This document shows positions 3,834 to 62,361 of a stretch of DNA of 64,000 nt, one piece after another. The first letter of the stretch is position 1, and every line of letters begins with the position of its first letter. Origin of the DNA: Phycisphaerae bacterium. GTDB lineage: Bacteria; Planctomycetota; Phycisphaerae; UBA1845. The position numbers were made by a program, and so were the translations under genes. The stretch covers positions 1 to 64,000 of the forward strand of contig CAXXGO010000001.1 of assembly GCA_963666835.2 (NCBI GenBank). Direction: 5' to 3'. Below the pieces are notes generated by a model that was not told the origin of the DNA, searched no databases, and saw only the letters and a list, made by a program, of their open reading frames with translations.

Positions 3834-3847
3834 AAGTGGGCCACGCA

Positions 3848-6008: not shown

Positions 6009-6022
6009 AAGTGGGCCACGCA

Positions 6023-38774: not shown

Positions 38775-38968
38775 GCGTTGTAGGGCGGCGCTTGCGGGCC
38801 GGTCTGCATGAGAGGTTGATTCCCCCGGAGGCGGGCGGGACTGCTTTCGGGATGACATAAGAACCCGGACGTCGGGCGAAGGTCAAGGTGCCGACCGGCG
38901 AAAGGAATGAGGCCGTATCGCGGTGGTTAAGTCTGCGAAACGGCAATGGACTACGAAGGAGAGATGTG

Positions 38969-41224: not shown

Positions 41225-42192
41225 CCGGGCGTTGGTACATTGAACGCCGCCGCCGCGGCCTGACGTTGCTGGAAGTCGTGCTGGCGATGAGTTTGCTCGT
41301 CGTGCTGTCTACGATGACGTACTGGTTTTACTCCTCGTCGCTGGAGACGCGTGAGCGCGGGATGAAGGCGGCGCAGCGTCAGCGGTTGGTCCGGGTGATT
41401 CTGGACCGAATCGCGGCGGAGATTCGCCAGGCGAGTGCCATCGGTATTGGACAGCGCGCGGGGATTCGCGGCGAAGCCGAACGAATCTGGCTGACGACCA
41501 TGCGGGTGCCGAGCAAGGAGCTATCGAAGGAACGCCGCTCGCGGGAAGAGCCGCCGCCCGGCGAGTACGACCTGGCCAAGGTGGCCTACCACATCGTTCG
41601 CCATCCGGACATCCAGGACGAGGACGGTTACGACAAGCCGCTGGGGCTGGCGCGGGTGGAGATTACCGTTCCGCGTCCCGACAGCGCCGAGACGGGCGAA
41701 GCGTTCGAGGGGGAGTCGGGCCAAACGACGGATGGAGAAGAGTCGTCTTGGGATGCGTTCGAGGAAGCGCTGCTGACCGACGACGAGAGCGGCGGTATCG
41801 AGGCGGTGGAAGACATCAACTGGCAGGAGCTGTACTCGACGGATGTTCGTTATCTGCGGTTCTGCTACTTCGACGGCAATACCTGGTGGGACGAATGGGA
41901 TGTCCCCGGGGAGAACGCTCTTCCGCAGATGGTAATGGTGACGTTGGGGTTCTCGGGTCAGCCGCCCTGTGGTGAGGAGTTCGGACAGACGCCCAACGAG
42001 GAGTTCTGTGAGTGCCTCAACCGTGACCCGATGGACTGTGAACGGCTGCCGTTGGATCAGTACACCCGGGTCGTGCGGGTGACCCAGGCGGACCCGCTGT
42101 TTCGGTCGCGGGTTACGCGTGAGGGGCAGGAGCTTGCCCAGACGCTGGGGGCGTCTTCTGGGAAAACCGAGGGCGAAGAGGAGGGCGATTGA
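41221..42192 (+). CDS. Minor pseudopilin (GspJ-like)
   Basis: RRG|LTLLEVVLAM; FCYFDGNTWWDEWD...LPQMV motif typical of GspJ-like proteins. Confidence 0.8.
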   Translation: MTGRWYIERRRRGLTLLEVVLAMSLLVVLSTMTYWFYSSSLETRERGMKAAQRQRLVRVILDRIAAEIRQASAIGIGQRAGIRGEAERIWLTTMRVPSKELSKERRSREEPPPGEYDLAKVAYHIVRHPDIQDEDGYDKPLGLARVEITVPRPDSAETGEAFEGESGQTTDGEESSWDAFEEALLTDDESGGIEAVEDINWQELYSTDVRYLRFCYFDGNTWWDEWDVPGENALPQMVMVTLGFSGQPPCGEEFGQTPNEEFCECLNRDPMDCERLPLDQYTRVVRVTQADPLFRSRVTREGQELAQTLGASSGKTEGEEEGD

Positions 42193-45578: not shown

Positions 45579-47129
45579 ATGGATCGGCGTACTAAGATTC
45601 TAGGCGGCGTGTTTCTCGCGATCGTCTGCTACGCGTTGATTGCCAACGTGGCCTATCCGAGCTGGATCAAACCACTCCTCGAGACCGGTGAGCGCGTCGC
45701 CGAGCAGCAGGAAGAACTCGACAAACTGGAGGCCGGGGAAGCTGAAGTCCAGATGGCGAAGCTGGAATACGGCGAGTTACTCGATCGGATGAGTTCGTTT
45801 GACGCGGCCAAAGCGGAGAACGACCTGCGCGAGCGGCTGAACCAGTTAGTGGGAAAGCACGGACTGGAGGAAGTGACCACATCGGGCGGCGGTCGGGTCA
45901 GCCGGTACAAGAAGACCGACTTCGAGACAATGAACCTCTCGCTCAGTGCCACCGGCACTCTGCGTGGGGTGATCGGGTTCCTGAAGGACCTTTCGGAACT
46001 GCCGCACGTGCTCCGGCTGGGTAATGTGGCGATGTTTCCGTCCCGGTCTTCGCGCAAGGGACGGGCGGGTACACAGATTCAACTGCGGGTGCCGCTCGAA
46101 GTGGCCGTGCTTCCGCAGCAGAGGATTCTCGGGAATCTGCTGAAGGACGAGGATCTCAAACAACCCGAGTCATACGTACGGCACGAAGGGCGCAATTACT
46201 CGGAGATCTGGGAGCGGACTCCCTTTACCGAGTTCGTGCCGCCCGAACCGTTGGTCGCCAACGCCGGGCGGACCATCAATGTGGAGTTGAACACGCCGAC
46301 GTCCATGCAGGGTTCTGCGACCGGGGGGGACGGCAACTACACTTACCTCTGGTCTCCGGAGGAGGGGTTGAGTGATCCGAATACCGCGCGCCCGAAGCTC
46401 GACACGTCTACGACGTGGAAGCGGGACTATACCTTGACGGTCACCGACGGGCTGGAGGAGAAGTCGACCTCGACCGTCACGGTGACGATTCGCGAGAAGG
46501 CTCCGGCGGTCACCGAGACGCGTCCGACGGAACCGCCCAAGCCGGTCGGACCGCAGCGCTGGGCGGAAAACAACCGGATGAAGCTGCTTATGGCGCTGAT
46601 GCATAGGGAGGGTGACGTTCGCCTCGACGAGGTGATGGTCTTCCACCTGAAGTCGAAGGAGACGACTTATCACGAGTTGGGGGCCGAGTTCGACGGCGGC
46701 GAGTTGGTCTTTGTGCATCCGCGCGGCGCGATCAGCCGCCGGAAGGACGACTACTTCATCTACCCGCTGGGCTGCACGCTCAATCAGGACATCCGTATGG
46801 AGGAGGCCGGCGACTATCCTGTGCTCCAGGCTGCCGCCTACAGATTGAGTGGCATAGTCCTGGAGACGACCCCGGAAACCGGGGCGGTTTTGGGGCAACC
46901 TGCTTCGACCCCGTCGGGTGGCGGCCCGGAAGAGGAAGAAACGCCCGTGGTCGAGGAGCAGGGCAGTGCCACAACCGAGACTCCGAGCGCGCCTGGGCCC
47001 AAAGTTGCCCCTGCGGCGGCGCCGGCGTCCCGCGATCCTAACGAAGACCGTACTGAGCGAGTAGCCGACAAGCCCAAAAAGAAGAAGAAGAGCAGCCGCC
47101 GTCGGGGCGGGCGAAAGAAGGGGCGTTAG
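45579..47129 (+). CDS. PilO/GspM-like protein fused to PKD/Ig-like and GspC-HR-like domains
   Basis: N-terminal TM + coiled coil + LSATGT...FL.DL; ANAG...YTYLWSP...YTLTVTD; C-terminal beta domain; basic tail. Confidence 0.6.
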   Translation: MDRRTKILGGVFLAIVCYALIANVAYPSWIKPLLETGERVAEQQEELDKLEAGEAEVQMAKLEYGELLDRMSSFDAAKAENDLRERLNQLVGKHGLEEVTTSGGGRVSRYKKTDFETMNLSLSATGTLRGVIGFLKDLSELPHVLRLGNVAMFPSRSSRKGRAGTQIQLRVPLEVAVLPQQRILGNLLKDEDLKQPESYVRHEGRNYSEIWERTPFTEFVPPEPLVANAGRTINVELNTPTSMQGSATGGDGNYTYLWSPEEGLSDPNTARPKLDTSTTWKRDYTLTVTDGLEEKSTSTVTVTIREKAPAVTETRPTEPPKPVGPQRWAENNRMKLLMALMHREGDVRLDEVMVFHLKSKETTYHELGAEFDGGELVFVHPRGAISRRKDDYFIYPLGCTLNQDIRMEEAGDYPVLQAAAYRLSGIVLETTPETGAVLGQPASTPSGGGPEEEETPVVEEQGSATTETPSAPGPKVAPAAAPASRDPNEDRTERVADKPKKKKKSSRRRGGRKKGR

Positions 47130-47255
47130 TCTCGCAGGCAGCGAGGACGAGACTGCCGGCGTCGTATGTTGGCGCCGTTGACAATAGCAGGCGAGGGCCA
47201 TTGAGCCACAGTAAGACCACCCCTGATGTGGGGTGTAGTAAGAGGAGAGGTTGCC

Positions 47256-50200
47256 ATGAACGCACGGCCGAATGACTCAATCCAGCAAACGCTACGTCGT
47301 CTCGGCGTGGGGCTGGCGGTTGTCGTGTTTGGCTTGTCGGCCGCGGTCGGTTATGCGCAGTCTCCGCCGCCGAGCGGAAACGAAAAGACCAACAAGAAGG
47401 CGCCAGGGGCTAAAGAGACTCCGGGCGACAAGACTCCGAGCAGCAAGAGGGCTTCGAGCCCCAGGCGGGCTCCGAAAGCCAAGGAGGACGCCGGCGATAA
47501 GAAACCGTCTCGACGTACGAAGCCTCCGAGTGACAAGAAGACGAGCGATTCCGACGAAAAAGCCGCGGACGGTTCGAAATCCGCCGAGGAAGAAGACTCC
47601 AAGAGTAGCCGACCGGCGCAGCGGACCCACCGTCGTCCCGCCGGTGAGGAGAAAGAAGACACCAAAGAGTCTGATCCGAAAGAGCCGAGCCCGACCGGCC
47701 CGAAGAAGGTCGAGGAGAAGCCGGAGATAGACGCCGACCTGCGGCGACAGGTCGATGCCTTGATAGACTCTCCACCGGAGGATGCCGAGGATTCCGAGAA
47801 GCCTGAACCGCGGAGTCGCGGGTCGAAGCGGGTGAGTCCCTCCGAGGTGGGTCTGGTCAAGCCGGGTATGGGTACGACCACTACAGGCCCTAGACCCGGT
47901 ACGGAAGGGCCGGAACCGAAGGGTCCGACCACGACGCTGGACATTCCGGCACGCGAGGCGAGTGTGCCGGCCGAAGAGCGCACCTACTGGTTCAGCATCA
48001 AGGACGGCAGTTACGAGCAGTTGGTGGAGGGAATCGCCCGTGAGACCGGGTTGGGCGTAATGGGGGAGAGCCCCAAGGACGGGAAGGTCACCTTCGTGAC
48101 CGAAGAGGAGCTTACGTTCGACCAGTTGATCAAGCGCGTTCAGATGGTGCTGTTCAACTACAAGCCGCACGATCCTTACTGGCTCCTGCGCGAAGACACT
48201 CATTTGGAAGTCATTCGGATTACTGACTACTACCGGCGGCTCCCACGGGAGCGGATGTATCCCAGCATTGAAGAGTATCGGGCGGCGAATCTACCCAAGG
48301 ACGAACTGGCCCTGGTGCTCTACACTCCCCAGGCCGGTTCCATCGCGGATCTGACCGTGATTCGCGACTTCATGCCCGACTACGTTCGGGTGACTCCGCT
48401 TGAAGAGCGCAATACGGTCAGCATCTTTGCGTTGTCGCGCGATATTGAAAAGTACATGGACCTGATCCCCATCTTTGTAGGGGACAACGACGATCCGCGG
48501 ACGTTGGAGCTGATTGACGTTGAGCACATCCTCGCCAGCGAGGCGTTGGAGAAGCTGCGCACGTTGATGGACCTGGAGGCGAGCGGCGCGGCGCGGCCCG
48601 CGCCTCGGCCCAAGGCACGCGGGGCGAGCCCTCTTACCGGAGCGGAAGCGCCGGAAGTCAGCGTCGTTCCGGATGATGCCCGCGGGGTGATTATCGTTCG
48701 GGCCATGCCGGACAAGATCCGCGAAATCAAACAGCTGTTGCCATACTTGGATGTGGATACGACGCGAAGCTACGACCCGGTAGTGATTAAGGTCGTACAC
48801 ACAGAGCCGACCGAGCTGGTCGCGACGATTCAGCAGTTGCTAAGCGCGGCGGAGCCGGCTGCCCAGCCGGGGACGCCGACGAGCAAGACGACAACGCGGA
48901 GACGCGACCGGAAGTCGAAGGGTAGCCGACGGGGATCGTCCGGGGCTTCCTCGGTAGTGCTGGACGAGATAACGCTAATGCCGCATCCCAGTGCCCGAGC
49001 GATTATTGTCATGGCTTCGCAGGACGATGTCGTCCGGGTTCGCCATTTTGTGGAGATGTTTGACGTCGAGGACGGCGTCCACAACCACTCCATTGCTCTG
49101 GAGTACATCGACGCCGAAGAGGTGGTTGCGACCATCACCGAGCTGATGGCGGCCGGGACGGCCGGGACGGACACTTTCACGCTGGTGCCGGACCCGAAAG
49201 GGCGGAACATGTGGTTCAGCGGCAGCGAGCACCTTCTGGCCCAGATTGAGGAGATCGTGGCGGCGGTCGACACGGCTGACGACGTCGTGACGCTGCACAT
49301 CCACCATCTGGTCAACCGGACCCCGTCGTTCGTGGTCGGGATCCTCGAGCAGATGGAGAACACCGGAGCGACGGCGACAGGGGGCAAGGCCAATAGGCCG
49401 ACCCGTCGGCGGGGAAGCAGAAAGGCCCCCAAGGCGACGCCGCAAGCGACGCCGGGCAGCAAGTTCACTGCGGACGATGAGCAGGGGCAGCTCTTCGTGC
49501 TTTGTACTGAGCAGGAGTGGGAGGAGTACCTGGTCATAATCGAGCAGCTCGAGAGTGAGACGATCAGCGAGGTGCCGGTGCTGATCACGGTGGAGAACCT
49601 GACTCCGGACGAGGCGATCAACAAGCTGGGGACGCTCTTGAGCGATCAACAGCTTGCCAAAATGCGCTTCGAGACGACCGAAGCCGAGATTATCGTCATG
49701 GGGGCGAGCGAATTGGACTTGGCCTCGATTCGGAGCCTGCTGGCGGAACTGGATCGCCCGCTGGACATCGTGCAACGCACCTTTGAGATCCTCTATGCGG
49801 ATCCTGCGGAGCTGGTCTCGGCGTTGAACACGCTGGTCAGCGATGAAGCAGGCGGCAACTCCGCCGCCAAGCCGGGCCCGCCGCGTAAGGGCGCAAGGGC
49901 GACGCGTCCGGTAGCTTCTCGGGCAAGCTCGTCCGAACTGACGATTGTGGAGCTCGGTAAGTTCCTGATTGTGCGGACTACCCCGGAGAAGATGGAACGC
50001 GTCGCCGAGTTCATTACCGAGTTCGACATTGAGGAAGATAAGCGAACGATCCGGGTGTATGACGACTTCCCGATCGGGACGGATCTCGAAGATCTGACTG
50101 ACACATTAACGTCACTTATGCCGGGCGATGCCCCGGAGACGGCTAAGCCTAAGGGTCGGGCCTCGCGTGCGACGACCACTGGAGCCGGCGGTTTGCGGAT

Positions 50201-53200
50201 CGTGCCGCGCCCGGCGCTGGGCAAGCTTATCGTGATCGCCACGCCGGAGGAGTTTGTGGAAGTCGAGAAACTCCTCGATGTGCTCCGCAGTGAGGATCAG
50301 CTCGGGCCGACCGAGATGGACTTCGTTAACGTCGAGTACGCCGATCCCGCCGAAGTGGTGGAGGCGATAGAGCCGCTGTTGGACCTACGGATCGAGCAGA
50401 TGATCCGCACCGGAGAACTCTCGGCCGCCTATGGCGGCGGCGGGGAGGCGACTCCCAAGATCAGTAGACACCGGGGCAAGAACGTGCCGGCGCCGGCGGC
50501 GGCGGCGAGCGGAGGAGGCGATTATCACCTCGCGGCCGATGAGCGGATGAGCCGGATTGTCGTTTTCGGACCCGGTCCGATCGTAGCGGCCGTGCGGGAT
50601 CTGGTACGTCAATTCGACGTACCGGGCGATACCCCGGACGCCGTGGACATTGCCTTCGTTCCGGTGGAGCACGGCGACCCGGAAGAGCTGGTCGAGATGG
50701 TCGAGCCTTTCCTGAGTATGCGGGTAGACGAGTTGGTTGCGGCGGGGTCACTGAGTGCCGGTACGGTGGAAGATCCTTCCGCGACGACGCCGAAAAGGGG
50801 CGTTAAGGGACCCAAACGCGGCACCACTCCGAGAAGCAAGAGTGGCGACGACAAGCGCTATCACCTGGCTCCGGACGAGCGGAATAACCGAATTGTAGTC
50901 GCCGCGCCGCAGATCGTGATTGAGGAGGCTACCCGGCTCATAGGGGAATTCGATCGCCCCGATGCCGAAACGGACATCACGTTCGTGACCGTAGAACTGC
51001 AGAACGCTGATCCGGACGAAATGGTCAAGGCTATCAAGGAGATGCTCGGCAGCGGCGGGCGAGCCGGGACTCGCCGGGCTAAAGGGGCGAAGGCTGCTGC
51101 GACGGCCGGCTCGACCGATACGGATAAGCTCACCGTCGCGGCTGCTCCGGGCGGAAGCGCGCTGATCCTACGTGGTCCGACGGAGGATGTTGAAACGGCC
51201 ACCGAGTGGATCGAGCACCTGGACAACATGTCGGCCAGCGGGCGGGAGATCAAGACTTATGAGATCCGCCGGGCGGACCTGCGGAGGCTGGTGGATCTGG
51301 TTATGTACGACGTGGACTCCGGCGGGTCCAAGCCTGCCGGAAAGAAACGCGCGGCGCCCAGGGGTAAGTCGCGCGGTGTTGCCGAAGCCCCGGTGGAGGA
51401 CGAGTTTGAGACGACGATCACCCGATCGGGGGCGGATCTCTACATCCAGGCGGATCTGATCGCGCGAACGATGGTGGTTTCCGCTCCGCCGATCAAGCTG
51501 GCCCGGATCGACGAGATCGTCGCCCAGATGGACACTGAAGAAGAGTCGGGCATAACGGGGAAAGAAGTTCCGAAGTTCTTCTACGAGCTCAAGCACGTAG
51601 ATGCTATCGACGCCCTCTTCGATTTGGAGGCGGTTCTGGATGTCATGTGGGAGCCGTCCACCGATCTGCCGAAGGTCGATTACGCCCCCTTTGGCGAGAC
51701 TCTGATCATCAAGTACCCCGACGAGCGGCGTTTCCCGGAGATCGAGGCTCTGATCGTCAAGTACGTCGATAAGGTGCCGCCGGAAGATCTCGTATTGGAC
51801 CGCGAGGCGTTCACACCGCCCACGGGGATGAGTCCGCGTGATACGTACCTGTGGCTGAAGATGAACTACCCGGATTACGAGTTCGAGCTGATCGACATCT
51901 CGACGATCAAAGAAAGTGACTATCCGATCACGGAAGTCCAGCCGGCGACACGGCAGGCGCAGGCTAACCCGTGTGTCCTGCCTTTGGCATTCAAGCAGAT
52001 GGCCGATGCCGCGCTGGCGATTGCTACCGGGCAAACCGAGCCGGACCAGCCCCAGGATGATCCACAGGAGGATCCCCCGAGCGATCGTGAGGAGGCCGAG
52101 GACGAGCCGGCCCCCGAGGATGACGACGGCGGGTATGAAGATTCGGACGACTATGAGGAATCCTACGAGGAACCGGTTGGCGGAGAAGCCGGCGCGCCTG
52201 AAGGTGCCAGGCCGGCCGGCATGACGGAAGCCGAGGAGCGGAGCAGGATTCGAGCGCTCCTCGATGAGAAGGAGAAACGGCGCACCGCGAAGCCGACCGG
52301 CGAGAAGATCAAGGTCTTCATTGACGAGTCCTCGGGTGGGGTCTTTTTAGAAGGCAAGGCGGGGATTCTCAAAGACGCCGACGAGTGGATGGACAAACTC
52401 AAGAAGGAAATAGAGACCCTCCCGACCATGCCCGACATCCGGGTCTTCCAGGTCAAGCACATTGACGTATACGCAGCCCAGGAAGTCCTCAACGAGATGT
52501 TCAACGCGACGCAATCGCAGCGGCAGGCGGTTACCGCAGCGCAACGCCGCGCCCAGCAGCAACAGCAGGCGGCCCAACGGCGGGCGCAACAGCAGAGAAC
52601 GGCGAAAGGACAGGAAGAGGAGCAGGATAAGGACGGACGGCAATCCCGGCGCGGACAGCAGACCCAGCAACAACAGGTCCCACAGCTCCCGGCCGAGTCG
52701 GTGCGCATCTTCCCGAACCCGCGCGATCGGACCCTGATCGTCCGAGCGGAGTCGACCCAGTTTGCGGTGATCAAGAAGCTGCTGGCCACGATCGATCGAC
52801 CGCAACCGATCGAGAGCATCCACCGGGTGTTCCAGTTAAAGAAGCTTAACGCCACCGAAGTCGAGGAACTGTTGCGAGACTGGCTCGGGCTTGATGAGCA
52901 GCAGACATCGCAGCGGCGGACTTCATCGAGCTCAAACCGGGCGAGAAACGCACGTAGCGGTGCTGCTCAAACACGGCAGACCCGAAGCACGGGCGCCGCC
53001 GGGCGGCTGCCCAAGACTTTGATGCAACACTCGCCGACGGCCGGGGAGCTCGGCGTCGACCCGCGCGACATCAAGATCAGCAGCAATCCGGAAACGAACA
53101 CCGTTTTGGCAATGGCTCCGAAGGTGGCGATCGAGTACATCGCCGACCTGATCGAGGATCTGGAGAGCCAAGAGATCGAGGAGCGTATTTGGAAGACTTA

Positions 53201-56200
53201 CGAACTCGAATACGCCGCGGTGGACGAAGTGGTCGAGTATCTGTCGAGCCGTTTCGGGGATTCCACCGGCTCCAGCACCGGCAAGAAGAACTCCAAAGGA
53301 CGCGGAAGTACGACGACCGCGACAACTGCTACGGGCGGGCTGCTGAATACGGCCAGCTTCGTAGCTTTTCCCACGCTCAATCTGATTTCGGCACAAGCGG
53401 TAGAAGAGCAGATTGCGGAGATTGATGAGCTGATCGCTCAGCTCGATGTGCCCAACGCGGGCGAGGTGTTCCAGTCGGTCGCTCTAACGTATGCCGATGC
53501 CGCCTTGGTGGCCGACACGCTTACGGCGATGTTTGGCAGCACGGGCTCCGCGGGCGGGGGGCGTAAGACCGGCGGAAGGAACCGCAGCGCAAACACCGCG
53601 ACAGCCGCTGCCGGGCCGACCTTCATCGGAGAAGAGGGCACCAAGATTGTTTTCTTCGCCGCGCCGGAGCGCATGCACGAGCGGATTCACGAGGTCATCC
53701 GGGAACTCGAGGAGCAATCCAAAGGCAGCAAGACGGTCCGCACCATCATACTGGCTCACGCCAAGCCCAGCGTGGTCGCCGAGGCTATCCAAGAGGCCTA
53801 CGGCGGAACCAGCGGCGGGCGAGGTGGCCGGGGCGGCAGGGGCCACCAGGCGACCACGACGGGTTTTACGGTAACGCCGTCGGACGATTCGAAGCGGATC
53901 TTCGTCATGGCCGACGACACGACCTTCGGCGAGATCAAGTCGCTGGCCGAGATGCTCGACGTGCCGCCGGAGATCGGGTTCGACTTCCGAATCTACAAAC
54001 TTGAGTACGCCAGCGCCAGAATAGTCTACGAGACCCTGAACAAGCTGGTTACGGATTTCGTGCGGGCTAAAGGGCGCGAAGGCGGGCAGATCGAAGCTTT
54101 TGCCGTCGAGGTCGACGACAAGGCCAACGCTCTGGTCGTGCTGGGTGGGCAGGTGGTCTTCGACTTCGTCGAGAATGCTTTGGTCAACATCGACACCCCG
54201 GCGAACGCGGCGAGCCCGCCGGGCTTCTTGATGGTGCCGCTGAAGACCGCGGACGCTACCGAGGTCGCCCAGAGCATCACCCGGCTCTGGAACCAGAAGA
54301 CCATGCCGCCGGGAGAGCTTCCTCCACAGGCGGAGGCGAACCGGCTCTTGAACGTTCTGATTGTCCGGGGTACGCAAGATCAGATTGACGAGATTCGACG
54401 CGATATCATCGACCCGCTGGATAGCTACACGCCTCCGGCGCTGCTCGCCGAGACGATTACGCTTAAGTATGCCCAAGCCGAAGAGGTGGCGGACGCGATC
54501 AGCCGGGTCTTCGAAGATACGCGCGAGGCGTACCGAACCATGGCCGGCGGCGGTGGCAAGCAGCCCCCGGCGCTGGAAATGACCGTAGCGATTACGCCCG
54601 ACGCCGCCACGAACCAGGTCATCGTGCAGGCGAGCGAAACGAACATGGGCAAGATCAAGGCCCGCATCGCCGAGCTGGATCGCGAGGACATCGCCAGCCG
54701 GTCGGCGACCTCGACCAAGGTTTACACTCTCGATACCGCCGATCCGAACGCCGTGGTGAACATGATCCGGGAGTGGACCCGCACCCAGCAGCAGCGGGCC
54801 GGGCGCAACCAGACCCCGACAGCGCGGGACACCATCGTGGCAGTGGCCGAACCGACCACGCAGTCCGTGGTGGTGACCGCCAGTGAGATGAACCACCGGC
54901 TGATTCAGGACGTCATCGACGGATTGGACAACGAAACCGTCGCAGCGCGGGAGCGCCAGCGCCATGTCATGCCGTTGCGGTTTGCCGCGGCCGGCGAGGT
55001 CGCCAACCAGTTGACCCAAGTGTTCAGGAACGTGACCCGGCGACGCGGAGATACGGGCCCGGCATTCGTGGCCGACACTATCGGCAATACCGTCGTTGTG
55101 AGTGTCAACGCCGAGGAGTATGCCGAGGTTGAACAGCTCGTCACCGCGCTCGACCAGGAGCCGGGGATTGATACCCAGCGCATTACGAAGGTCTACCCGC
55201 TGATCTATGCCGATCCGGCAAGCGTCAACACGGTTGTGGTGAATATGTTCCGCTCCACGGGGCGGGCGCAGACCGGCCCGCTGGACCAGGTCGCCTCTTC
55301 ACCCGAAACGGCGACGCGGGCGGTGGTGGTAACCGCTTCGACCAAGAACCAGGAAGTGGTGGCCGCGATGATCGAGGCGTTGGACAAGGAGTCCACGTTC
55401 ACCAAGGTCATGCACACGTACCAGCTTCAGAAGGCTAATGCCGAGGAAGTTGCTACTGCCTTGCAGGAAGTCTATCGCGCGCGGCGCTCGAACATCCGGG
55501 GCGATACTCCGGTGCAGATCACGCCCGAGGCGGCCACGAACTCGCTGCTGATTCTGGCGAACCAGACCGAAATGGACGAGCTGTCCGGGTTGATCAAATC
55601 GCTGGATGTCGAGCCGATGGCCGAGCGCCAGCGACAGGTTCGCAGCTTCCCTCTCGCCGACGCCGACCCATGGAGCGTGCAGGAAGCAATCAACAAGCTG
55701 TTCCGCGGAAGCGGGAGAAACGAGCGCGATCAGGTCACCGCGGTAGCCGAATGGGGTTCGCAGTCGGTGATCGTATCGGCCTCGCCCGAGAACATGGTCC
55801 GCATCGAAGAGCTGGTGGCCCAGTTCGATGTTGAAGGAGCGGCCGAGCAGGCCGTCCACGTGATCGCCCTGGAGAGCACCGATGCCGAGTCGGTGTCGCA
55901 GACCCTCAACGAGATTTTCGTGAAGTCGGCCCCGCGGCAGCAGGGCAATCAAGAGGTGCCGATCTCGATCGCGGCGCTGCGCGGCTCGAAGGCGGTCGTG
56001 GTTAAGTGCAAAGATGATGACTTCGCCCGAATCCAGGCCGCTGTGGCCGAGTTGGATCGCGAAGACGCGGTCATTGGCGAAGAGGTCCGCGTAGTGACCT
56101 TGCTGTACAGCAACGCGGAGGAAGTCAAGACGGCCGTGCAGGAGTATCTGCGCAAGCCCGGTGGCAGCGCGGGACGCGGCACCGCCGAGTTGGCCGGGGA

Positions 56201-56963
56201 TGTCCGGCTGGCCGTACTGGACCAGACCAACGCTGTGGTCGTCAGCGGGGATCTGACCCGGGTCGAGCACATCGAGAAGCTGATCACCGAGATGGACATC
56301 GCGGGCGAGAAGGGCTCGATTCCGCAGATCATTGTTCTGCAATACCTGAACGTCGGGCGGGTTCTGCCCAGCCTCGAAGAGATGTTCGAGGAACGTCGGG
56401 GCGGCGGACGCTCGGGGCAGCAGCCGCCGGTGATTGTGGCGAACGAGAACCTCAATGCCCTGGTTGTCCGCGGCAGTCCTACGGATGTGCGAGCGATTGA
56501 GGCGATTGTCGCGAAGCTCGATACGGAAGAGGCCGGGGACAAGCCCAACTACCGCGTGATCCGGGTCGCTACCGGGATCAATGTCGAGGACTTAGCCGAG
56601 AAGATCGAAACGACAATCAACGAAGGCGTGGCCGCCCAGCAAGGTTCCTCCGGCGGGCGCAGCGGAAGGCAGATGGCCGGAATCACGGTGACTTCGGATC
56701 GACGGACTAACTCGTTGATGGTGGCCGGGACGCCGACGCTCTTCGACGAAGCAGAGCAACTGGCTCGGGCGATGGAAGAAATGGGCCCCGCGGGCGGTTC
56801 GCAAATGCGGATCATCAAACTGCGCGGCACGCCTTCGGACGAGGTGATCCGATTGATCGAGCAGTTGAAGGGCGAGGAGAGCGGAAGCAGCAAGAAGTCC
56901 GGATCGTCGCGTCGGCGGAGTAGTAGCGGCGGTTCGCGAAGTGGCGGCAGCCGGGGGCGCTAA
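47256..56963 (+). CDS. Giant secretin N-domain repeat protein (~3235 aa) lacking the secretin pore domain
   Basis: AGGAGAGG RBS; signal peptide ending AVGYA; N0-like domain; about 31 NolW/secretin-N repeats by manual count; no PQV/IP.LGD.P motifs. Confidence 0.88.
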   Translation: MNARPNDSIQQTLRRLGVGLAVVVFGLSAAVGYAQSPPPSGNEKTNKKAPGAKETPGDKTPSSKRASSPRRAPKAKEDAGDKKPSRRTKPPSDKKTSDSDEKAADGSKSAEEEDSKSSRPAQRTHRRPAGEEKEDTKESDPKEPSPTGPKKVEEKPEIDADLRRQVDALIDSPPEDAEDSEKPEPRSRGSKRVSPSEVGLVKPGMGTTTTGPRPGTEGPEPKGPTTTLDIPAREASVPAEERTYWFSIKDGSYEQLVEGIARETGLGVMGESPKDGKVTFVTEEELTFDQLIKRVQMVLFNYKPHDPYWLLREDTHLEVIRITDYYRRLPRERMYPSIEEYRAANLPKDELALVLYTPQAGSIADLTVIRDFMPDYVRVTPLEERNTVSIFALSRDIEKYMDLIPIFVGDNDDPRTLELIDVEHILASEALEKLRTLMDLEASGAARPAPRPKARGASPLTGAEAPEVSVVPDDARGVIIVRAMPDKIREIKQLLPYLDVDTTRSYDPVVIKVVHTEPTELVATIQQLLSAAEPAAQPGTPTSKTTTRRRDRKSKGSRRGSSGASSVVLDEITLMPHPSARAIIVMASQDDVVRVRHFVEMFDVEDGVHNHSIALEYIDAEEVVATITELMAAGTAGTDTFTLVPDPKGRNMWFSGSEHLLAQIEEIVAAVDTADDVVTLHIHHLVNRTPSFVVGILEQMENTGATATGGKANRPTRRRGSRKAPKATPQATPGSKFTADDEQGQLFVLCTEQEWEEYLVIIEQLESETISEVPVLITVENLTPDEAINKLGTLLSDQQLAKMRFETTEAEIIVMGASELDLASIRSLLAELDRPLDIVQRTFEILYADPAELVSALNTLVSDEAGGNSAAKPGPPRKGARATRPVASRASSSELTIVELGKFLIVRTTPEKMERVAEFITEFDIEEDKRTIRVYDDFPIGTDLEDLTDTLTSLMPGDAPETAKPKGRASRATTTGAGGLRIVPRPALGKLIVIATPEEFVEVEKLLDVLRSEDQLGPTEMDFVNVEYADPAEVVEAIEPLLDLRIEQMIRTGELSAAYGGGGEATPKISRHRGKNVPAPAAAASGGGDYHLAADERMSRIVVFGPGPIVAAVRDLVRQFDVPGDTPDAVDIAFVPVEHGDPEELVEMVEPFLSMRVDELVAAGSLSAGTVEDPSATTPKRGVKGPKRGTTPRSKSGDDKRYHLAPDERNNRIVVAAPQIVIEEATRLIGEFDRPDAETDITFVTVELQNADPDEMVKAIKEMLGSGGRAGTRRAKGAKAAATAGSTDTDKLTVAAAPGGSALILRGPTEDVETATEWIEHLDNMSASGREIKTYEIRRADLRRLVDLVMYDVDSGGSKPAGKKRAAPRGKSRGVAEAPVEDEFETTITRSGADLYIQADLIARTMVVSAPPIKLARIDEIVAQMDTEEESGITGKEVPKFFYELKHVDAIDALFDLEAVLDVMWEPSTDLPKVDYAPFGETLIIKYPDERRFPEIEALIVKYVDKVPPEDLVLDREAFTPPTGMSPRDTYLWLKMNYPDYEFELIDISTIKESDYPITEVQPATRQAQANPCVLPLAFKQMADAALAIATGQTEPDQPQDDPQEDPPSDREEAEDEPAPEDDDGGYEDSDDYEESYEEPVGGEAGAPEGARPAGMTEAEERSRIRALLDEKEKRRTAKPTGEKIKVFIDESSGGVFLEGKAGILKDADEWMDKLKKEIETLPTMPDIRVFQVKHIDVYAAQEVLNEMFNATQSQRQAVTAAQRRAQQQQQAAQRRAQQQRTAKGQEEEQDKDGRQSRRGQQTQQQQVPQLPAESVRIFPNPRDRTLIVRAESTQFAVIKKLLATIDRPQPIESIHRVFQLKKLNATEVEELLRDWLGLDEQQTSQRRTSSSSNRARNARSGAAQTRQTRSTGAAGRLPKTLMQHSPTAGELGVDPRDIKISSNPETNTVLAMAPKVAIEYIADLIEDLESQEIEERIWKTYELEYAAVDEVVEYLSSRFGDSTGSSTGKKNSKGRGSTTTATTATGGLLNTASFVAFPTLNLISAQAVEEQIAEIDELIAQLDVPNAGEVFQSVALTYADAALVADTLTAMFGSTGSAGGGRKTGGRNRSANTATAAAGPTFIGEEGTKIVFFAAPERMHERIHEVIRELEEQSKGSKTVRTIILAHAKPSVVAEAIQEAYGGTSGGRGGRGGRGHQATTTGFTVTPSDDSKRIFVMADDTTFGEIKSLAEMLDVPPEIGFDFRIYKLEYASARIVYETLNKLVTDFVRAKGREGGQIEAFAVEVDDKANALVVLGGQVVFDFVENALVNIDTPANAASPPGFLMVPLKTADATEVAQSITRLWNQKTMPPGELPPQAEANRLLNVLIVRGTQDQIDEIRRDIIDPLDSYTPPALLAETITLKYAQAEEVADAISRVFEDTREAYRTMAGGGGKQPPALEMTVAITPDAATNQVIVQASETNMGKIKARIAELDREDIASRSATSTKVYTLDTADPNAVVNMIREWTRTQQQRAGRNQTPTARDTIVAVAEPTTQSVVVTASEMNHRLIQDVIDGLDNETVAARERQRHVMPLRFAAAGEVANQLTQVFRNVTRRRGDTGPAFVADTIGNTVVVSVNAEEYAEVEQLVTALDQEPGIDTQRITKVYPLIYADPASVNTVVVNMFRSTGRAQTGPLDQVASSPETATRAVVVTASTKNQEVVAAMIEALDKESTFTKVMHTYQLQKANAEEVATALQEVYRARRSNIRGDTPVQITPEAATNSLLILANQTEMDELSGLIKSLDVEPMAERQRQVRSFPLADADPWSVQEAINKLFRGSGRNERDQVTAVAEWGSQSVIVSASPENMVRIEELVAQFDVEGAAEQAVHVIALESTDAESVSQTLNEIFVKSAPRQQGNQEVPISIAALRGSKAVVVKCKDDDFARIQAAVAELDREDAVIGEEVRVVTLLYSNAEEVKTAVQEYLRKPGGSAGRGTAELAGDVRLAVLDQTNAVVVSGDLTRVEHIEKLITEMDIAGEKGSIPQIIVLQYLNVGRVLPSLEEMFEERRGGGRSGQQPPVIVANENLNALVVRGSPTDVRAIEAIVAKLDTEEAGDKPNYRVIRVATGINVEDLAEKIETTINEGVAAQQGSSGGRSGRQMAGITVTSDRRTNSLMVAGTPTLFDEAEQLARAMEEMGPAGGSQMRIIKLRGTPSDEVIRLIEQLKGEESGSSKKSGSSRRRSSSGGSRSGGSRGR

Positions 56964-57172
56964 CCCGGTTTCGCAGAGTGAGGTAAGGCATGTTGGATGG
57001 CCGAGTTCTCAGAGTCCGCCGAGCGGCGGGCACCCGCGTCGAGCGGATCCGGCTCATCAGAGCCGCCCGGGAGGCAGAAGCACGGATGGAGCCGACCGGT
57101 CTGCCGGAAAGCCTGATGAGTGGAAGCAAGCGGTCAGGGCGAGGATGCCGGACCGTAGAGAGGTTATAGATC

Positions 57173-60100
57173 ATGCGCGCGAGCAATAAGGTGTTGACTA
57201 TGCGGGCACACGTTTCAAGGCCGTCGGTCTGGTGGAGTGTTGTCGTTCTGGCGGTGGGTCTCATCGCCGCCCCTCCGGTCGTTAGAGCTGAGAACGGGAC
57301 CAACCCACCGAAGAAGCCGGCCGCCCCTGCGGCGGAGTCGGACGAACAGCGCGAACCGGATGCCGTCGATATGGGCGAGCTGCCGGCCGTGCAGGGCATC
57401 GACGACGTGACACTGTCCGGGGCGGAGCTGGACTATGAGATGGTCGGAGACCAGATCATCCTCAAGGGCGCCCAGCAGGACCTGGACTTGTTGGAAGCGT
57501 TGATCGGCACGTTGGAAGGTGCCCGAGAGCAGAAGGTCCTGCGGATCGTCACCGTAAAGGCCAAGGATGCCAATGAGATCGCCCGGACGGTGGAGCAGCC
57601 TCTGCGCGACATCTTCTACGAGCCTAACCAGCGCACGGAGGATCAGCTTTCGGTCACGGCCCTGTCGTCGAACATCTTATTGGTCGCGGCACTGCCCGAT
57701 CAGATCGACTTCGTGATAAGCGTGGTGGAGAGCGCCGACGCCGTACCGGACGACATCGGTAAGGTCGAGCAGCTCGTGTTCGCGGTCAAGCACCGCAAGG
57801 CCAGCGACGTGGCGGATCAACTGCGGGAGATGATCACGAAACTGCGTCAAAAGCAGGGTTCCAGCGGCGCCGAGGACGAGTTCCAGATCGTCCCGAACAA
57901 CGCCAACAACACCATTGTCGTTCTGGCTCCCGAGTCGGAGCGTAAGAAGATCCAGACCTTGCTGGACGGGATCGACGTAGAGCCGGTCAGCGGCTGGGGC
58001 GAGGTCAAACTGACGTTCTTCCCGCTGTTGCACTCGAAGTCCAACGAGTTGAGCCAAGTGATCGAGGATCTCCTGGAGTCTCAGCAGGATCGCGAGGCGG
58101 CCGAGGAGACGGTCTATCGCCTGCTCATCAGCAAGGCCATGCCCGACGGGCAACGCATCGAGCTTCCCCCGATCGACCTGCAAAAGCCGACCCGGGTGAT
58201 TCCCGACGAGGGGACGAACAGTCTGATCGTAGCCACGGTGGAAGAGAACGTCGGACCGATGGGCGAGCTGATCCGCTTGCTCGATAACGTGGCGATTGCC
58301 GAGGACGTGGAAGTCAAGCTGTTTCCGCTCCGATTCGCGGATGCCGAGACGGTGCGGGATCTGCTGCAGGATATGTTCGAGAACGCCACTGAGCTGACCG
58401 AGGACCCCGACGGCAGCGGAGAGAACGCCGTGCCGCCCGGAGAGGTTGGTAGGGCTTTAGTCTACAACCTGGGAACGGCCGCGGATACGCGGACGAACAC
58501 GCTGCTGGTGACCGGCCGGCCGGAGCAGGTTCAACTGGCCGAGCGAATCGTCAAGGACCTGGATCGCCCCGTAACGGCGTTGAAGTTCCCGCTCCGGCTC
58601 ATCCATCTGGAACACGTCGACGTGTCGCAGATCAGCCAGCTTATCCGGGATCTGCTCGACCAGCGGTTCGAGGCGCTGGAGGCTACGGGGGGCGGGAAAT
58701 CCGCAACGGAACTCGAGCGCGTGTTCCTCAACGTCGATCTGCGGAGCAATTCGCTGATCGTCGCGGCGTCGGAAGAGAACTACCAGGAGGTGGTTGAGAT
58801 CGCCCGGCGCCTCGATACCCGACCGGACCAGGTGTTCGACCAGATTCGGATAATCGAGTGCCAGCGGCTGGCCGCATTGGACCTGAAAGAGAAGATCGAG
58901 GAACTCTGGCAGCGCAAGTCGAGTTTGCGTCAGGACGCGGAATTGCCGGAAGATTCGCCGATCGTCGTTGCGGACGAGCGGAGTAACTCGCTGGTGGTGG
59001 CGTCGAACCGGGAGGATTTCGAAGAGATCAAGAAGCTGGTCGAGACGCTCGAGAAGCGGCCCTTGATCGACGATACCCGCCTGTTCAACCTCGAGCACAC
59101 CGATGCCATTGTTCTGGCAGAGATGCTCGATGAACTGTTCCAGGGCATGGAAGGCACTACGGAGGCGTTCAAAGCTCCGACCATTATCCCCGACGCACGC
59201 TCCAACGCTCTGGTGGTCGCAGCGACCCGGGACAGTATGGAGCGGGTGGAGGAGATCGTCGCCCGGCTCGACGTCGAAGCCGGGCCCATGACCGCGATCT
59301 TCAAGGTGTATCCGCTCAAGCACGGCTCGGCGAACAAGCTGGCTATGCGCATGCAGGAGCTGTTCGACTCTCGCGCCGAAGGGCAGGAGTTGAACCGCAC
59401 GCCGATCGTCGTCCTGGCGGATGAGTCGTCGAACAGCCTGGTGACCAGCGCTTCGCGCGACGATCACCGGGTGATGGCGGACCTGCTCAGTCTGCTGGAT
59501 CGCCCGTCCAGTATCGCCCGGCAGTTCGAGATCTTCCCGCTGAAGCTGGCCAGGGCTACGTCGGTCAAGGAACGTCTCGATACCCTGTTCGAGGCGCAAG
59601 CGGAAGGGACCGAGGGCAGCGCCGTGGCGATCGCCGCAGAGGCGGACGAGCGTACGAACTCGATCATCGTGTGGGCCTCGCCGGCGGAGATGGAGAACGT
59701 CGGGGAGGTCATCGGGCGGTTGGATAAGGCAAAGCCGGTCCGGGAGATGGCCGTCAGACTTATCCAGCTCAAGCAGGCGCTCGCCGAAGATTTCGCCACG
59801 CTGCTCGAAGAGTCCATCATCGGGGAGAACGCCGGCGAAGACGATGAGCCGGCCGTGATTCTGAAGCAGAAGTACACTGACAAGCACGGCAACCAGGCCG
59901 AACGCACGCTGCTTCGACAGGACATCTCGGTCAAGGCGGACCCGCGGACCAACTCACTGCTGGTTACCGCGCCGGCGGACAGCCTGGCCATGCTCGAGGA
60001 GATGATAAAAGACTTCGACCGGGTGAATCCGATTCGGTCGGAGATTCGCCTCTTCCCGCTGCTCAACAGCGACGCCGAGAGTATGGTCGATCAGCTCACC

Positions 60101-61810
60101 GACATTTTCAGCTCGGAGGGCGGCGAGGATGGGGAGACCAGGACCCAGTTGCTGTTCGGGGCGGGAATGGAGGATCTGGACTTCGCCAGCGTCGGGCAGG
60201 AGCTGCGCCTGGCGGCGGATCAAAGAACCAACACGCTTATCGCCGCCGGTGCGGAGGTCGACCTGCGCATGGTCGAGGACTTGGTGTATGCCCTCGATGC
60301 GCAGGAGGCGGAGGACCGGGTGGTGGAGGTCTACCACGCGAAGTTCCGCGATGGTCAGGATCTTTCCAACGCCATCCAGGGGTTCGTTCAGCAAGAGCAG
60401 GACGTGCTGGGCGAGCTAGACGACGAAGAGGCCCGGATGCGCCGCATGGAGCGGCAGGTTTCGGTCGAGAGTCTCGGCAACGAGGAGGACGGCAGCAGCA
60501 GCCTTATTGTCGGAATGAGCCGCCGCGAGCACCAACGCACGATGGAGATGATCGCCCAGCTCGATAGGCCGGAACCGCAGGTTATGATTCGCGTGTTGAT
60601 CGCCGAAGTGACTTTGAACGACAGTGCCGAGCTGGGAGTCGAGATCGCAGGGCAGGATTTGAACTTCTCCGACAGCGCCGTGCTCGGTCCCAACGGGATC
60701 GTGCAAGGACCGGACTTCGATTGGGTTGCGGGTACGGACTTGGGCTCGGCCGGGCTCGGTTTGGGTGGCTTCAACTTCACCCTGACCGGCGAGGACTTCA
60801 GTTTTCTGTTCCACGCTCTGCAGCAGAACAACCGGACGGAGATTCTGTCGCGGCCGCTGCTCGTCGTCCGCAACGGTGAGGAGGGTATGATCAAGGTCGC
60901 CGACGAAGTGCCGATTGTGGAATCCTCGCGATTGAGTGACACGGGGCAGACTCAGTCGACGATCGGGCGGGAAGACGTTGGTATCGTCCTGACGGCCACC
61001 CCGCACATCAGTCCGGACGGCTACGTTTCGATCCAGATCAAGCAGGAGATTTCGAACATTGCCGGTGAAGATGTGCAACTTACCGAGGGTGTAAGTTCGC
61101 CGATCTTCCAGTCGCGCGAGGTCGAGACCGACGTGACGGTCCGAGATGGTGAAACGGTGATCATTGGTGGGTTGATTCAGCACCGCAAGTCGGATGGGGA
61201 GAACAAGATCCCGATTCTCGGTGATCTGCCGCTGTTGGGCCCTCTGTTCCGTTCGACCAGTACGTCAGACGACCGGTCGGAGTTGATGGTCGTCCTGACG
61301 GTCGACATTCTGCGGACCGATGAGGATATGCACCGGATCTCCACCGAGCAGCGCGAAATGTACGATTTCAGTCCGTGGATGAGCCAGAGCCGGCTTATGG
61401 AAGGACTCCGGATCCTCCCGGAAGACACGAAGCTCGGCCCGACCGAGGATTCCCCGTCGAAAACCGAGCCGCGCTTACGCACTCGGCCGGATGAACGCCA
61501 ACTTTACGGTCCGAAGCCGCGGGTCTACGGCCCGACCATCAAGAGTCCGGCCGCCAAGACGAGTACGGCGAACGGTCCGGTCTACGGACCTGCGGTCAAA
61601 CGTTCGACGCGCGGTCCGGATGCGACTCCGCGGTCGGACTCACCGGCGCCCGTCAAGCAACCTCTGGCGTTGGCGGATACGGCGCTGGTGCCGGTTTTCG
61701 GTCCGGCTTGTCTGCAACCTCCGGAATCTAACGCGGAAGTCGAGCCGGTCTACGGTTCGACCCTGCGAAGCAGAACGGTAAAGCCCGTAATGGACGCTCC
61801 GCTGGAGTAA
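57173..61810 (+). CDS. gspD: Secretin (GspD-like) with ~12 N-domain repeats
   Basis: Signal peptide (start may be 57200); repeated D.R.N.LIV units; pore domain PQVMIRVLIAEV, ILSRP, DVGIVL.ATPHI, GETVIIGGL, KIPILGDLPLLGPLF. Confidence 0.93.
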   Translation: MRASNKVLTMRAHVSRPSVWWSVVVLAVGLIAAPPVVRAENGTNPPKKPAAPAAESDEQREPDAVDMGELPAVQGIDDVTLSGAELDYEMVGDQIILKGAQQDLDLLEALIGTLEGAREQKVLRIVTVKAKDANEIARTVEQPLRDIFYEPNQRTEDQLSVTALSSNILLVAALPDQIDFVISVVESADAVPDDIGKVEQLVFAVKHRKASDVADQLREMITKLRQKQGSSGAEDEFQIVPNNANNTIVVLAPESERKKIQTLLDGIDVEPVSGWGEVKLTFFPLLHSKSNELSQVIEDLLESQQDREAAEETVYRLLISKAMPDGQRIELPPIDLQKPTRVIPDEGTNSLIVATVEENVGPMGELIRLLDNVAIAEDVEVKLFPLRFADAETVRDLLQDMFENATELTEDPDGSGENAVPPGEVGRALVYNLGTAADTRTNTLLVTGRPEQVQLAERIVKDLDRPVTALKFPLRLIHLEHVDVSQISQLIRDLLDQRFEALEATGGGKSATELERVFLNVDLRSNSLIVAASEENYQEVVEIARRLDTRPDQVFDQIRIIECQRLAALDLKEKIEELWQRKSSLRQDAELPEDSPIVVADERSNSLVVASNREDFEEIKKLVETLEKRPLIDDTRLFNLEHTDAIVLAEMLDELFQGMEGTTEAFKAPTIIPDARSNALVVAATRDSMERVEEIVARLDVEAGPMTAIFKVYPLKHGSANKLAMRMQELFDSRAEGQELNRTPIVVLADESSNSLVTSASRDDHRVMADLLSLLDRPSSIARQFEIFPLKLARATSVKERLDTLFEAQAEGTEGSAVAIAAEADERTNSIIVWASPAEMENVGEVIGRLDKAKPVREMAVRLIQLKQALAEDFATLLEESIIGENAGEDDEPAVILKQKYTDKHGNQAERTLLRQDISVKADPRTNSLLVTAPADSLAMLEEMIKDFDRVNPIRSEIRLFPLLNSDAESMVDQLTDIFSSEGGEDGETRTQLLFGAGMEDLDFASVGQELRLAADQRTNTLIAAGAEVDLRMVEDLVYALDAQEAEDRVVEVYHAKFRDGQDLSNAIQGFVQQEQDVLGELDDEEARMRRMERQVSVESLGNEEDGSSSLIVGMSRREHQRTMEMIAQLDRPEPQVMIRVLIAEVTLNDSAELGVEIAGQDLNFSDSAVLGPNGIVQGPDFDWVAGTDLGSAGLGLGGFNFTLTGEDFSFLFHALQQNNRTEILSRPLLVVRNGEEGMIKVADEVPIVESSRLSDTGQTQSTIGREDVGIVLTATPHISPDGYVSIQIKQEISNIAGEDVQLTEGVSSPIFQSREVETDVTVRDGETVIIGGLIQHRKSDGENKIPILGDLPLLGPLFRSTSTSDDRSELMVVLTVDILRTDEDMHRISTEQREMYDFSPWMSQSRLMEGLRILPEDTKLGPTEDSPSKTEPRLRTRPDERQLYGPKPRVYGPTIKSPAAKTSTANGPVYGPAVKRSTRGPDATPRSDSPAPVKQPLALADTALVPVFGPACLQPPESNAEVEPVYGSTLRSRTVKPVMDAPLE

Positions 61811-61815
61811 GGACG

Positions 61816-62361
61816 ATGTCGACGGACAGGTTCCGATGTAGGCGTCAGGCCGTTTCCGTACTGACGCTGGCTGCGGTGGTTGTGATAGGAGGGTGTCAGT
61901 CACCGGGTGCCGGGGGCAGGGCGACGGCCGGCCGGAACACACCCGCCCGTGACCTGGTTCGCCGGGTACGGTGCGTTTACGATCAGAACCCCTGGATCAA
62001 TGTGGATCGACTCGGCGACCGCGACCCGGAGGGAGTACGGTTTCGGGTGTTTCTTGACCGTGGAACCGGGACGGGCGTTCTGCACGATGGGACTTTCCAC
62101 GTAGAGATGTATCAAGTTGAACGCAGTCAACAGGGGAAGAAGTCCCGCCGGCTGGTCAGCGATTGGCATTATCCCACCAGCCGAGTGGCGACCATTGCCA
62201 AGCCGGGGATGCTGGGGCGCGGGTATTACCTGCAATTAGTCTGGGCCAGCAAGGACATTGCCGGCAAAAACGTCGAGATGATCGTGTTCTTCGAAGACTC
62301 GCAAGGCAACATCGCCCGCTCGGAGACCAAGTCCTTCCGCGTGCCCAAGTATACTTCGTAA
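61816..62361 (+). CDS. Putative lipoprotein (candidate pilotin/accessory protein)
   Basis: Hydrophobic signal ending IGGC; starts 5 nt after the secretin stop; basic, beta-rich. Confidence 0.6.
   Translation: MSTDRFRCRRQAVSVLTLAAVVVIGGCQSPGAGGRATAGRNTPARDLVRRVRCVYDQNPWINVDRLGDRDPEGVRFRVFLDRGTGTGVLHDGTFHVEMYQVERSQQGKKSRRLVSDWHYPTSRVATIAKPGMLGRGYYLQLVWASKDIAGKNVEMIVFFEDSQGNIARSETKSFRVPKYTS

Follow-up and report, generated by a model that had tools for sequence, protein, structure and literature searches.

How can one secretin come to be encoded by two adjacent genes, the first of which lacks a pore? Secretins form homo-multimeric rings of 12 to 15 subunits in the outer membrane, and those that have been characterised possess three to six periplasmic rings; GspD carries the N domains N0 to N3. 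The DNA examined here (the window) is a stretch of 64,000 nucleotides (nt) from a Phycisphaerae bacterium (GenBank assembly GCA_963666835.2, contig CAXXGO010000001.1, positions 1 to 64,000 of the forward strand). It contains a gene for a very large polymer of N domains, followed by a secretin gene, and an initial annotation made from the letters alone (the sequence-only reading) had taken the pair for a two-part giant secretin. Our analysis makes it highly probable that the two proteins are parts of one secretin assembly. In addition, we give a probability of about 0.6 to the more specific reading that they are successive parts of a single giant secretin, connected head to tail by an N domain that is rebuilt from both chains.

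Domain content of the two chains

The first gene is an open reading frame (ORF) of 3245 amino acids (aa) at positions 47226 to 56963 of the plus strand; the public gene call uses an alternative ATG at 47256, which gives 3235 aa. The second, in the same orientation at positions 57173 to 61810, encodes a secretin of 1545 aa. A Pfam scan of the first protein detected PF03958 (Secretin_N) with an E value of 1.2e-202 in 22 stretches, and the PF00263 pore was absent at E <= 0.01. The second protein matched PF03958 in 10 stretches (E 4.2e-110) and contained the PF00263 pore (E 3.9e-48). N domains were counted with a hidden Markov model (HMM) that was iterated on the two window proteins themselves. 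This model found 29 N-type domains in the first protein and 12 in the second, and the combined total becomes about 42 to 44 if the terminal piece, a domain at one junction and the divergent domains are counted as well. Many of these N domains carry long low-complexity insertions in the loop between helix 1 and strand 2. The sequence-only reading had described two co-oriented ORFs, a first protein without a pore, repeats of the secretin-N type, and about 12 repeats plus a secretin core in the second protein; all of these were recovered, and its estimate of about 44 N domains in total was roughly right.

Both chains passed the GspD model TIGR02517 of NCBIfam (591.4 bits for the first and 532 bits for the second, against a cut-off of 351.35). 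Because the score of the first protein is summed over 16 repeated stretches, it means that this protein has GspD-type N domains and not that it is a full GspD; since PF00263 is absent from it, the secretin is the pair and not the first protein alone. Under the rival models, the second protein scored 257 bits with TIGR02515 (PilQ; cut-off 284.35) and 180.4 bits with TIGR02516 (SctC; cut-off 238.45).

In known systems, the N0-N1-N2 head of the secretin faces the inner-membrane platform. An N0-like domain had been claimed for the first protein, and the Pfam N0 model matched neither of the window proteins nor the isolated N0 segment. Residues 245-520 of the first protein were then aligned with 20 relatives (21 rows) and modelled with AlphaFold2, which gave a mean predicted local distance difference test score (pLDDT) of 84.2. 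The best Foldseek match of the model was the N0-N1-N2 region of Pseudomonas XcpQ (4e9j_B, E 2.6e-11, 261 alignment columns). GspD of enterotoxigenic Escherichia coli (ETEC) followed, and the isolated N0 domains of PilQ and LspD were matched as well, that of PilQ (4ar0) over 87 columns with a root-mean-square deviation (rmsd) of 3.1. In a profile search of the PDB, the head matched GspD 5wq7 (E 5.5e-15) with a score that came mainly from N1-N2, and the N0 part was in register but weak, at 3.6 bits. The N0 domain of the first protein is confirmed at the level of the modelled fold, its sequence signal being weak. The second protein has no N0; a partial N domain comes after its signal peptide and a short linker.

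Signal peptides had been claimed for both proteins. By eye, both N-termini resemble signal peptides, in that they contain basic residues, a hydrophobic segment and a small-x-small site; for the polymer, an uncleaved membrane anchor is also possible. At its other end, the secretin finishes with a Pro-rich tail that takes the place of the S domain, and tails containing YGP end the secretin chains of most relatives.

The gene break inside an N domain

The break between the two genes falls within an N domain. By profile-profile alignment, the C-terminus of the polymer and the N-terminus of the mature secretin cover complementary, non-overlapping parts of the 84-column N-domain profile (Table 1), and the region of the profile between the two pieces is the variable loop that connects helix 1 and strand 2. 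The front part was conserved in 16 of the 16 split relatives aligned, and the back part in 14 of 14. Most of the pore-less chains of the relatives end, like that of the window, in a basic tail. Pfam returned nothing meaningful for the isolated pieces, because they are too short, or for the region of the internal junction J1 described below.

Both pieces were also found in single chains. In nine relatives of the same order that are encoded by one ORF (L018, L019, L021, L022 and L110-L114), the two pieces flank a linker of about 100 to 230 residues. This linker consists of a basic stretch or motif, a hydrophobic signal-peptide-like segment with a small-x-small end, and a Thr/Pro/Gln-rich stretch, and the pattern is kept across genera. 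With HMMs specific to the pieces, no junction was detected in the one-ORF forms of more distant families. Sec-exported chains of about 4400 aa may cope with such a segment in their middle by cleavage, anchoring or re-initiation.

The natural junction of L111 (169 aa, unchanged) was modelled with AlphaFold2. The pLDDT was 86-96 in both pieces and about 50 in the linker. In this model, 68 residues spanning positions 1-167 superposed on a single domain, N1 of ETEC GspD (3ezj_A 101-168; Z 9.6, rmsd 2.1 A), and when the model was searched against 48,161 solved chains, the 15 best rows were all secretins. The linked pieces are thus predicted to form one N domain from which the linker is looped out. 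Complex prediction with the last 121 aa of the first chain and the first 139 mature aa of the second scored 0.18, where the mark was 0.32, which speaks neither for nor against binding.

A further junction, J1, lies inside the first protein (residues 1438-1740) and was delimited by alignment with family relatives. Its elements are, in this order, a domain of divergent sequence, the conserved PCVLP motif together with a helix of weak hydrophobicity, an acidic linker and the back part of an N domain. The back part (around residues 1687-1727) aligned with columns 49-82 of the 84 in the profile (P 84%, E 7e-6), and a matching front part was unsupported in the profile alignment (P 0.6%). In G022, the J1 point is a gene boundary, and the proper signal peptide of the downstream gene aligns with the weakly hydrophobic helix. 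Judged from these alignments, the system looks like three modules, both boundaries of which fall between genes in some lineages and within a reading frame in others.

We propose the following mechanism for what would be a type II secretion-like machine of an uncultured Phycisphaeraceae bacterium. Each chain would be exported separately. The 3245-aa chain would direct its N0-N1-N2 head toward the inner-membrane platform and supply about 30 more ring-building N domains, and the 1545-aa chain would add the outer-membrane pore and 12 further N domains. To give one N domain, strand 1 and helix 1 of the first chain would pair in trans with strands 2 and 3 and helix 2 of the second. This rebuilt domain would lock the chains head to tail in a 1:1 ratio, and the rings of the multimer would continue from one protein into the next. 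As the gene break lies inside one N domain, the chains probably snap together into one long periplasmic conduit.

Several observations weigh against this proposal. The C-terminal piece of the polymer has moderate profile support (P 70%). The two pieces in the L111 model are covalently linked, and its alignment contained 39 rows, most of which cover a single piece; the pairing of the window's two chains in trans is thus inferred from a model of a linked form. J1 shows only a back part, so that not every junction is a clean split domain. The stacking of all 40-odd N domains as rings across a putative wide periplasm is likewise a supposition. As for the machine itself, most of the platform genes in the operon score below their curated cut-offs, GspG alone passing, and GspE and GspC are not in the operon (GspC was not searched genome-wide).

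The two proteins could also belong to the same machine and be connected by a different joint. The first protein would then form a separate cage near the inner membrane, or a flexible tether like beads on a string, and the end pieces would be leftovers of the split. The long low-complexity loops and linkers suit a flexible structure, J1 has no recognisable front part, and direct binding in trans is deduced rather than observed. However, leftovers would be expected to decay, whereas the pieces are kept in all 16 and all 14 of the split relatives aligned; moreover, the parts of the fold that they cover complement each other, and in linked form they are predicted to make up one domain. We therefore consider a different joint unlikely and prefer the rebuilt N domain.

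Split and one-ORF relatives

The two-gene split is real. Positions 56400-57600, including the stop codon and the 209-nt gap, were identical in three separately assembled contigs, which derive from three runs, two samples and two studies; one of the runs is possibly the source of the window's DNA. The split was then examined in a same-family sample of 12 loci from 12 other genera. In 11 of these, a pore-less frame of 2457-3381 aa is followed directly by a secretin of 1454-1824 aa, with 21-32 N domains per pore-less chain and 11-15 per secretin, and the 12th locus stops at a contig end within the first gene. One of the 11 split loci is cut at its 5' side by a contig end, and another has an extra in-frame stop in the first gene. 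In the latter (L033 of G007, locus 6745-6749), the lone stop lies in a Gln-rich loop of the pore-less gene and leaves 1538 and 1105 aa, the second fragment having no signal peptide; a sequencing error, read-through or a nonsense mutation of recent origin could explain the stop. The split pair was also present in five genomes from four other families of the order. Of the 75 relatives of the head module that were found in the protein database (1915-3794 aa), 70 have PF03958 and lack PF00263. Where names are given to these entries, they are 'hypothetical protein', 'secretin N-terminal domain-containing protein' or 'GspD/PulD'.

In the class as a whole, one ORF is the usual state. A profile built from the 11-row family alignment matched 93 of 151 genomes of the class, many of the frames being longer than 4000 aa. 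Twenty of the matching loci, all distant from the window, were taken for domain analysis, and every one of the 20 proved to be an uninterrupted frame of 3474-6169 aa that encodes 30-61 N domains and ends with the pore; the largest is L122 (G170), with 6169 aa and 61 N domains. The other families of the same order are evenly divided, with one ORF in 5 of 10 genomes and two or three pieces in the other five. The one-ORF frames there measure 5029, 4115, 4577 and 4434 aa, and at least 3449 aa in a frame that runs into a contig end, and comprise 34-45 N domains plus the pore. Examples in several pieces are a set of 1290 + 1254 + 1605 aa and L023/L024 (G020), the largest split form, in which the pore-less chain has 5512 aa with 59 N domains and the secretin that follows it has 1888 aa with 15. 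Among 201 genomes of the phylum, frames longer than 3000 aa were found only in the window's genome and in six of the same class, and the matching frames of other classes did not exceed 1606 aa; these figures describe a sample searched with one profile and are not proof of absence elsewhere. In the database, there are 130 pore-bearing clusters at 2705-5000 aa, and all 120 of those listed have both PF03958 and PF00263. Within a set of 68 related loci, 66 are assigned to Planctomycetota or Phycisphaerae or have no phylum label, and L090 and L109 are labelled Alphaproteobacteria and Hyphomicrobium, which are probably oddities of binning or labelling.

The one-ORF relatives have N0 at the start, then the N array, and the pore at the end, and BLASTP aligned both window proteins with them in colinear fashion. 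In L019, for example, residues 1826-3214 of the first protein correspond to 1401-2753, and residues 93-1467 of the second to 2701-4100. This colinearity is the strongest argument that the two proteins act in series. Together with the lack of an N0 in the secretin chain, it bears out the earlier placement of both chains in one assembly, with the pore-less chain on the inner-membrane side. On the other hand, the description of the first protein as a distinct extender has to be given up: it matches the N-terminal two thirds of a giant one-ORF secretin and is therefore not a new kind of component. The sequence-only reading had itself counted one-ORF forms of the region in related genomes as grounds for refuting it, and such forms occur in 20 of the 20 distant loci and in 5 of the 10 order genomes.

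A tree was calculated from the pore and about 450 upstream residues of 42 proteins, with a midpoint root for drawing only. All junction-bearing forms fell into one clade of the order (98/98), which is made up of 17 split forms, 11 one-ORF forms that have the signal-peptide-like junction, and two unclassified rows; 12 seamless giants of other orders lie outside it. The split state required one change on the best tree (support 39/26) and one to two changes in the bootstraps, and 15 split rows form one group (84/85). With the 12 seamless rows taken as the outgroup, the tree favours an order of states from seamless, to one ORF with the junction inserted in the loop, to the gene split. The simplest reading of the tree would thus be that a seamless ancestor acquired the junction and that the genes subsequently split at it; alternatively, the split may have come first and been followed by repeated re-fusion.

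Conduit, comparison with known systems and genomic context

Known secretins of the GspD/PulD/XcpQ type include solved 15-mers (5wq7, 6hcg and 5wln) and N-terminal crystal structures (3ezj and 4e9j). The window's pair resembles them in its PF00263 pore, N0-N1-N2 head and PF03958 domains, in its place at the end of a gsp-like operon, and in that both chains pass TIGR02517. It differs in having about 42 N domains instead of N0-N3, in carrying N0 and the pore on separate chains, in the splitting of one N domain, in the Pro-rich YGP tail that replaces the S domain, and in an operon without GspC or GspE. In the injectisome, the N rings of SctC are stacked on the rings of SctD and SctJ, so that several proteins with a similar alpha/beta ring fold build a trans-periplasmic channel. 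There, distinct families meet ring to ring, whereas here both chains belong to the secretin family and appear to share one domain. The one-ORF giants of Phycisphaerae (3474-6169 aa), which are database entries only, have the same head, arrays and pore in colinear order but as one polypeptide, and those of the same order keep the signal-peptide-like segment where the window's genes split.

According to passages of its published description, PilQ of Thermus thermophilus (757 aa) has six stacked rings, N0-N5, in a complex of 350 A; the six rings are called unusual there, and the complex is counted among the largest characterised (PMC5745081). The same passages assign to its additional beta-alpha-beta-beta-alpha rings the role of crossing a wide periplasm (PMC5745081), and in being lengthened by extra rings PilQ resembles the window's secretin. 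PilQ is a single chain that serves the pilus and DNA uptake, whereas the window's system has about seven times as many domains on two chains and belongs to a gsp operon. On the scale of this complex, in which six rings and the pore make up 350 A, a ring would take about 3-4 nm, and a conduit of some 42 domains, each making one ring as in solved secretins, would add up to roughly 100-170 nm. We offer this length tentatively, as an analogy that is possible rather than probable; the tube of about 100 nm put forward in the sequence-only reading is likewise an extrapolation. A survey puts the mean size of the secretin family at 555 +/- 151 aa (PMC4827864). Our literature search, which did not cover subscription journals and supplements, found no account of Planctomycetota secretins that are split or have many N domains.

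So many ring domains, about 42, make one ask how cargo or a pseudopilus covers such a distance, how the multimer is assembled, and how wide the periplasm of Phycisphaerae is. The split form has an advantage in this respect, as each chain, and each of the short complementary ends, can be produced on its own, which makes the joint testable with small fragments. The internal signal-peptide-like segment of the one-ORF relatives poses a separate question about the export and processing of very long periplasmic proteins. It is conceivable, though we regard it as doubtful, that the giant secretins of the whole order are modular conduits, snapped together from separately exported pieces via split N domains; the internal segment would then indicate that the one-ORF forms, too, undergo modular export or cleavage, the latter perhaps by signal peptidase. 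If this is true, the two-gene, three-gene and one-ORF forms would all give rise to one and the same set of chains. With a non-covalent snap joint, a conduit of at least 100 nm could be put together piece by piece, and perhaps it would open and re-form as the width of the planctomycete periplasm changes.

Both giant-secretin genes close a gspF-G-H-(I)-J-K-L-M operon (Table 1). Around the giant genes of the relatives, the gene for the PilM/GspL-like protein was found upstream in 14 of 44 loci, many of which end early on that side, and the GspM-like gene was immediately 5' in 18 of 44. For the GspE family, there are 12 PF00437 matches elsewhere in the 6.02-Mb genome, and four more secretin pores, encoded in frames of 533-1091 aa, are present in this genome. 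It is a guess that the polymer begins with an uncleaved hydrophobic anchor in place of a signal peptide; together with the low-complexity stretch of about 200 residues, this anchor would tie the head to the cytoplasmic membrane as a substitute for the missing GspC.

An operon without GspC or GspE would also be compatible with a structure in which the N arrays set a fixed or adjustable distance between the membranes, or anchor a fibre, and in which protein export plays a secondary part or none. Pilus machines, too, typically have a PilM-type platform protein, and the crateriform complexes of Planctopirus are portrayed, in the relevant part of their description, as press-stud-like links between the membranes that bear fibres (PMC5394234). 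However, GspG scores above its curated cut-off and GspK-, GspJ- and GspH-like minor pseudopilins are present; the pore-bearing protein is best described by the GspD model (532 against a cut-off of 351), those of PilQ and SctC remaining below theirs; and the giant forms in the phylum sample are confined to the class Phycisphaerae, to which Planctopirus does not belong. A spacer or fibre anchor is accordingly quite improbable in our view. The idea of a broken gene or assembly artefact, that is, an interrupted one-ORF secretin with a functionless first product, is extremely improbable: one-ORF forms are the majority in the class and G007 has its extra stop in the Gln-rich loop, but a split of this kind, in which the second gene starts with a signal peptide, is seen in 11 of 12 family loci, 70 database clusters are pore-less, the 17 split rows cluster on the tree with one to two changes, and the three contigs agree base for base.

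Table 1. Features of the window in the giant-secretin genes and in the surrounding operon
Feature	Position	Strand	Basis or remarks
Pore-less N-domain polymer	47226..56963	+	3245 aa from 47226 or 3235 aa from ATG 47256; ORF, Pfam, own HMM
Signal-peptide-like N-terminus of polymer	47256..47357	+	Read by eye from translation
Low-complexity K/P/E/S-rich stretch, ~200 residues	47358..47957	+	After the signal-peptide-like N-terminus of the polymer
N0-N1-N2 head module	47958..48785	+	AlphaFold2, Foldseek and PDB profile search
First N-domain block of polymer	48306..51536	+	Residues 361-1437; 12 own-HMM matches
Junction J1	51537..52445	+	Residues 1438-1740; alignment with family relatives
Second N-domain block of polymer	52446..56780	+	Residues 1741-3185; 17 own-HMM matches
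Putative N-domain front part (strand 1 and helix 1), C-terminus of polymer	56790..56873	+	hhalign, columns 2-25 of 84, P 70%, E 3.9e-5
Ser/Gly/Arg-rich basic tail and TAA stop	56874..56963	+	Translation
Intergenic gap, 209 nt	56964..57172	.	Between pore-less gene and secretin gene
Secretin subunit without N0	57173..61810	+	1545 aa; Pfam, NCBIfam
Signal-peptide-like N-terminus of secretin	57173..57289	+	Read by eye from translation
N-domain back part (strands 2 and 3 and helix 2), N-terminus of mature secretin	57404..57535	+	hhalign, columns 47-84 of 84, P 93%, E 3e-7
Array of 12 N domains of secretin	57551..60568	+	Residues 127-1132; own HMM (Pfam: 10 stretches)
Secretin pore domain PF00263	60815..61315	+	Residues 1215-1381, E 3.9e-48; 169.2 bits in genome search
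Pro-rich C-terminal tail with repeated YGP motifs	61430..61807	+	Occupies the place of the S domain
GspF-like platform protein, first operon gene as seen	37572..38774	+	PF00482 E 8.2e-56; TIGR02120 323.8 bits, below 424 cut-off
GspG major pseudopilin	38888..39430	+	PF08334 E 9.2e-24; TIGR01710 98.7 bits, above 88.85 cut-off
Minor-pseudopilin position, H-like	39489..40442	+	Weak GspH match, below cut-off
Minor-pseudopilin position (I position)	40442..41224	+	No family match
Minor-pseudopilin position, J-like	41221..42192	+	Weak GspJ match, below cut-off
Minor-pseudopilin position, K	42189..43949	+	GspK 95.3 bits, below cut-off
PilM/GspL-like platform protein	43924..45543	+	PF11104 E 3.4e-19; TIGR01175 96.8 bits, below cut-off
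GspM-like protein with PKD-like domain	45579..47129	+	PF10741 E 2.6e-4; PF22352 E 7.4e-5
Lipoprotein-like gene, 181 aa, candidate pilotin	61816..62361	+	Lipobox-like N-terminus by eye; directly after secretin
Second lipoprotein-like gene, 233 aa	62395..63096	+	Present in 7/44 relatives' loci

A consensus scan, the only method applied here, found no promoter or terminator in the 209-nt gap. The two lipoprotein-like genes downstream of the secretin gene matched no Pfam or NCBIfam family. In 23 of the 44 loci of relatives, which include both split and one-ORF ones, tblastn placed the gene for the 181-aa protein directly 3' of the pore gene, and its product may be a pilotin. About 1 kb upstream of gspF, positions 33652-36585 encode a 977-aa protein with RTX calcium-binding repeats, which may be a secreted cargo. 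Farther upstream, ORF sets of the same length (207 aa on the plus strand and 475 aa on the minus strand) are present at 3754-5275 and 5929-7450, about 2.2 kb apart, and look like two copies of one element.

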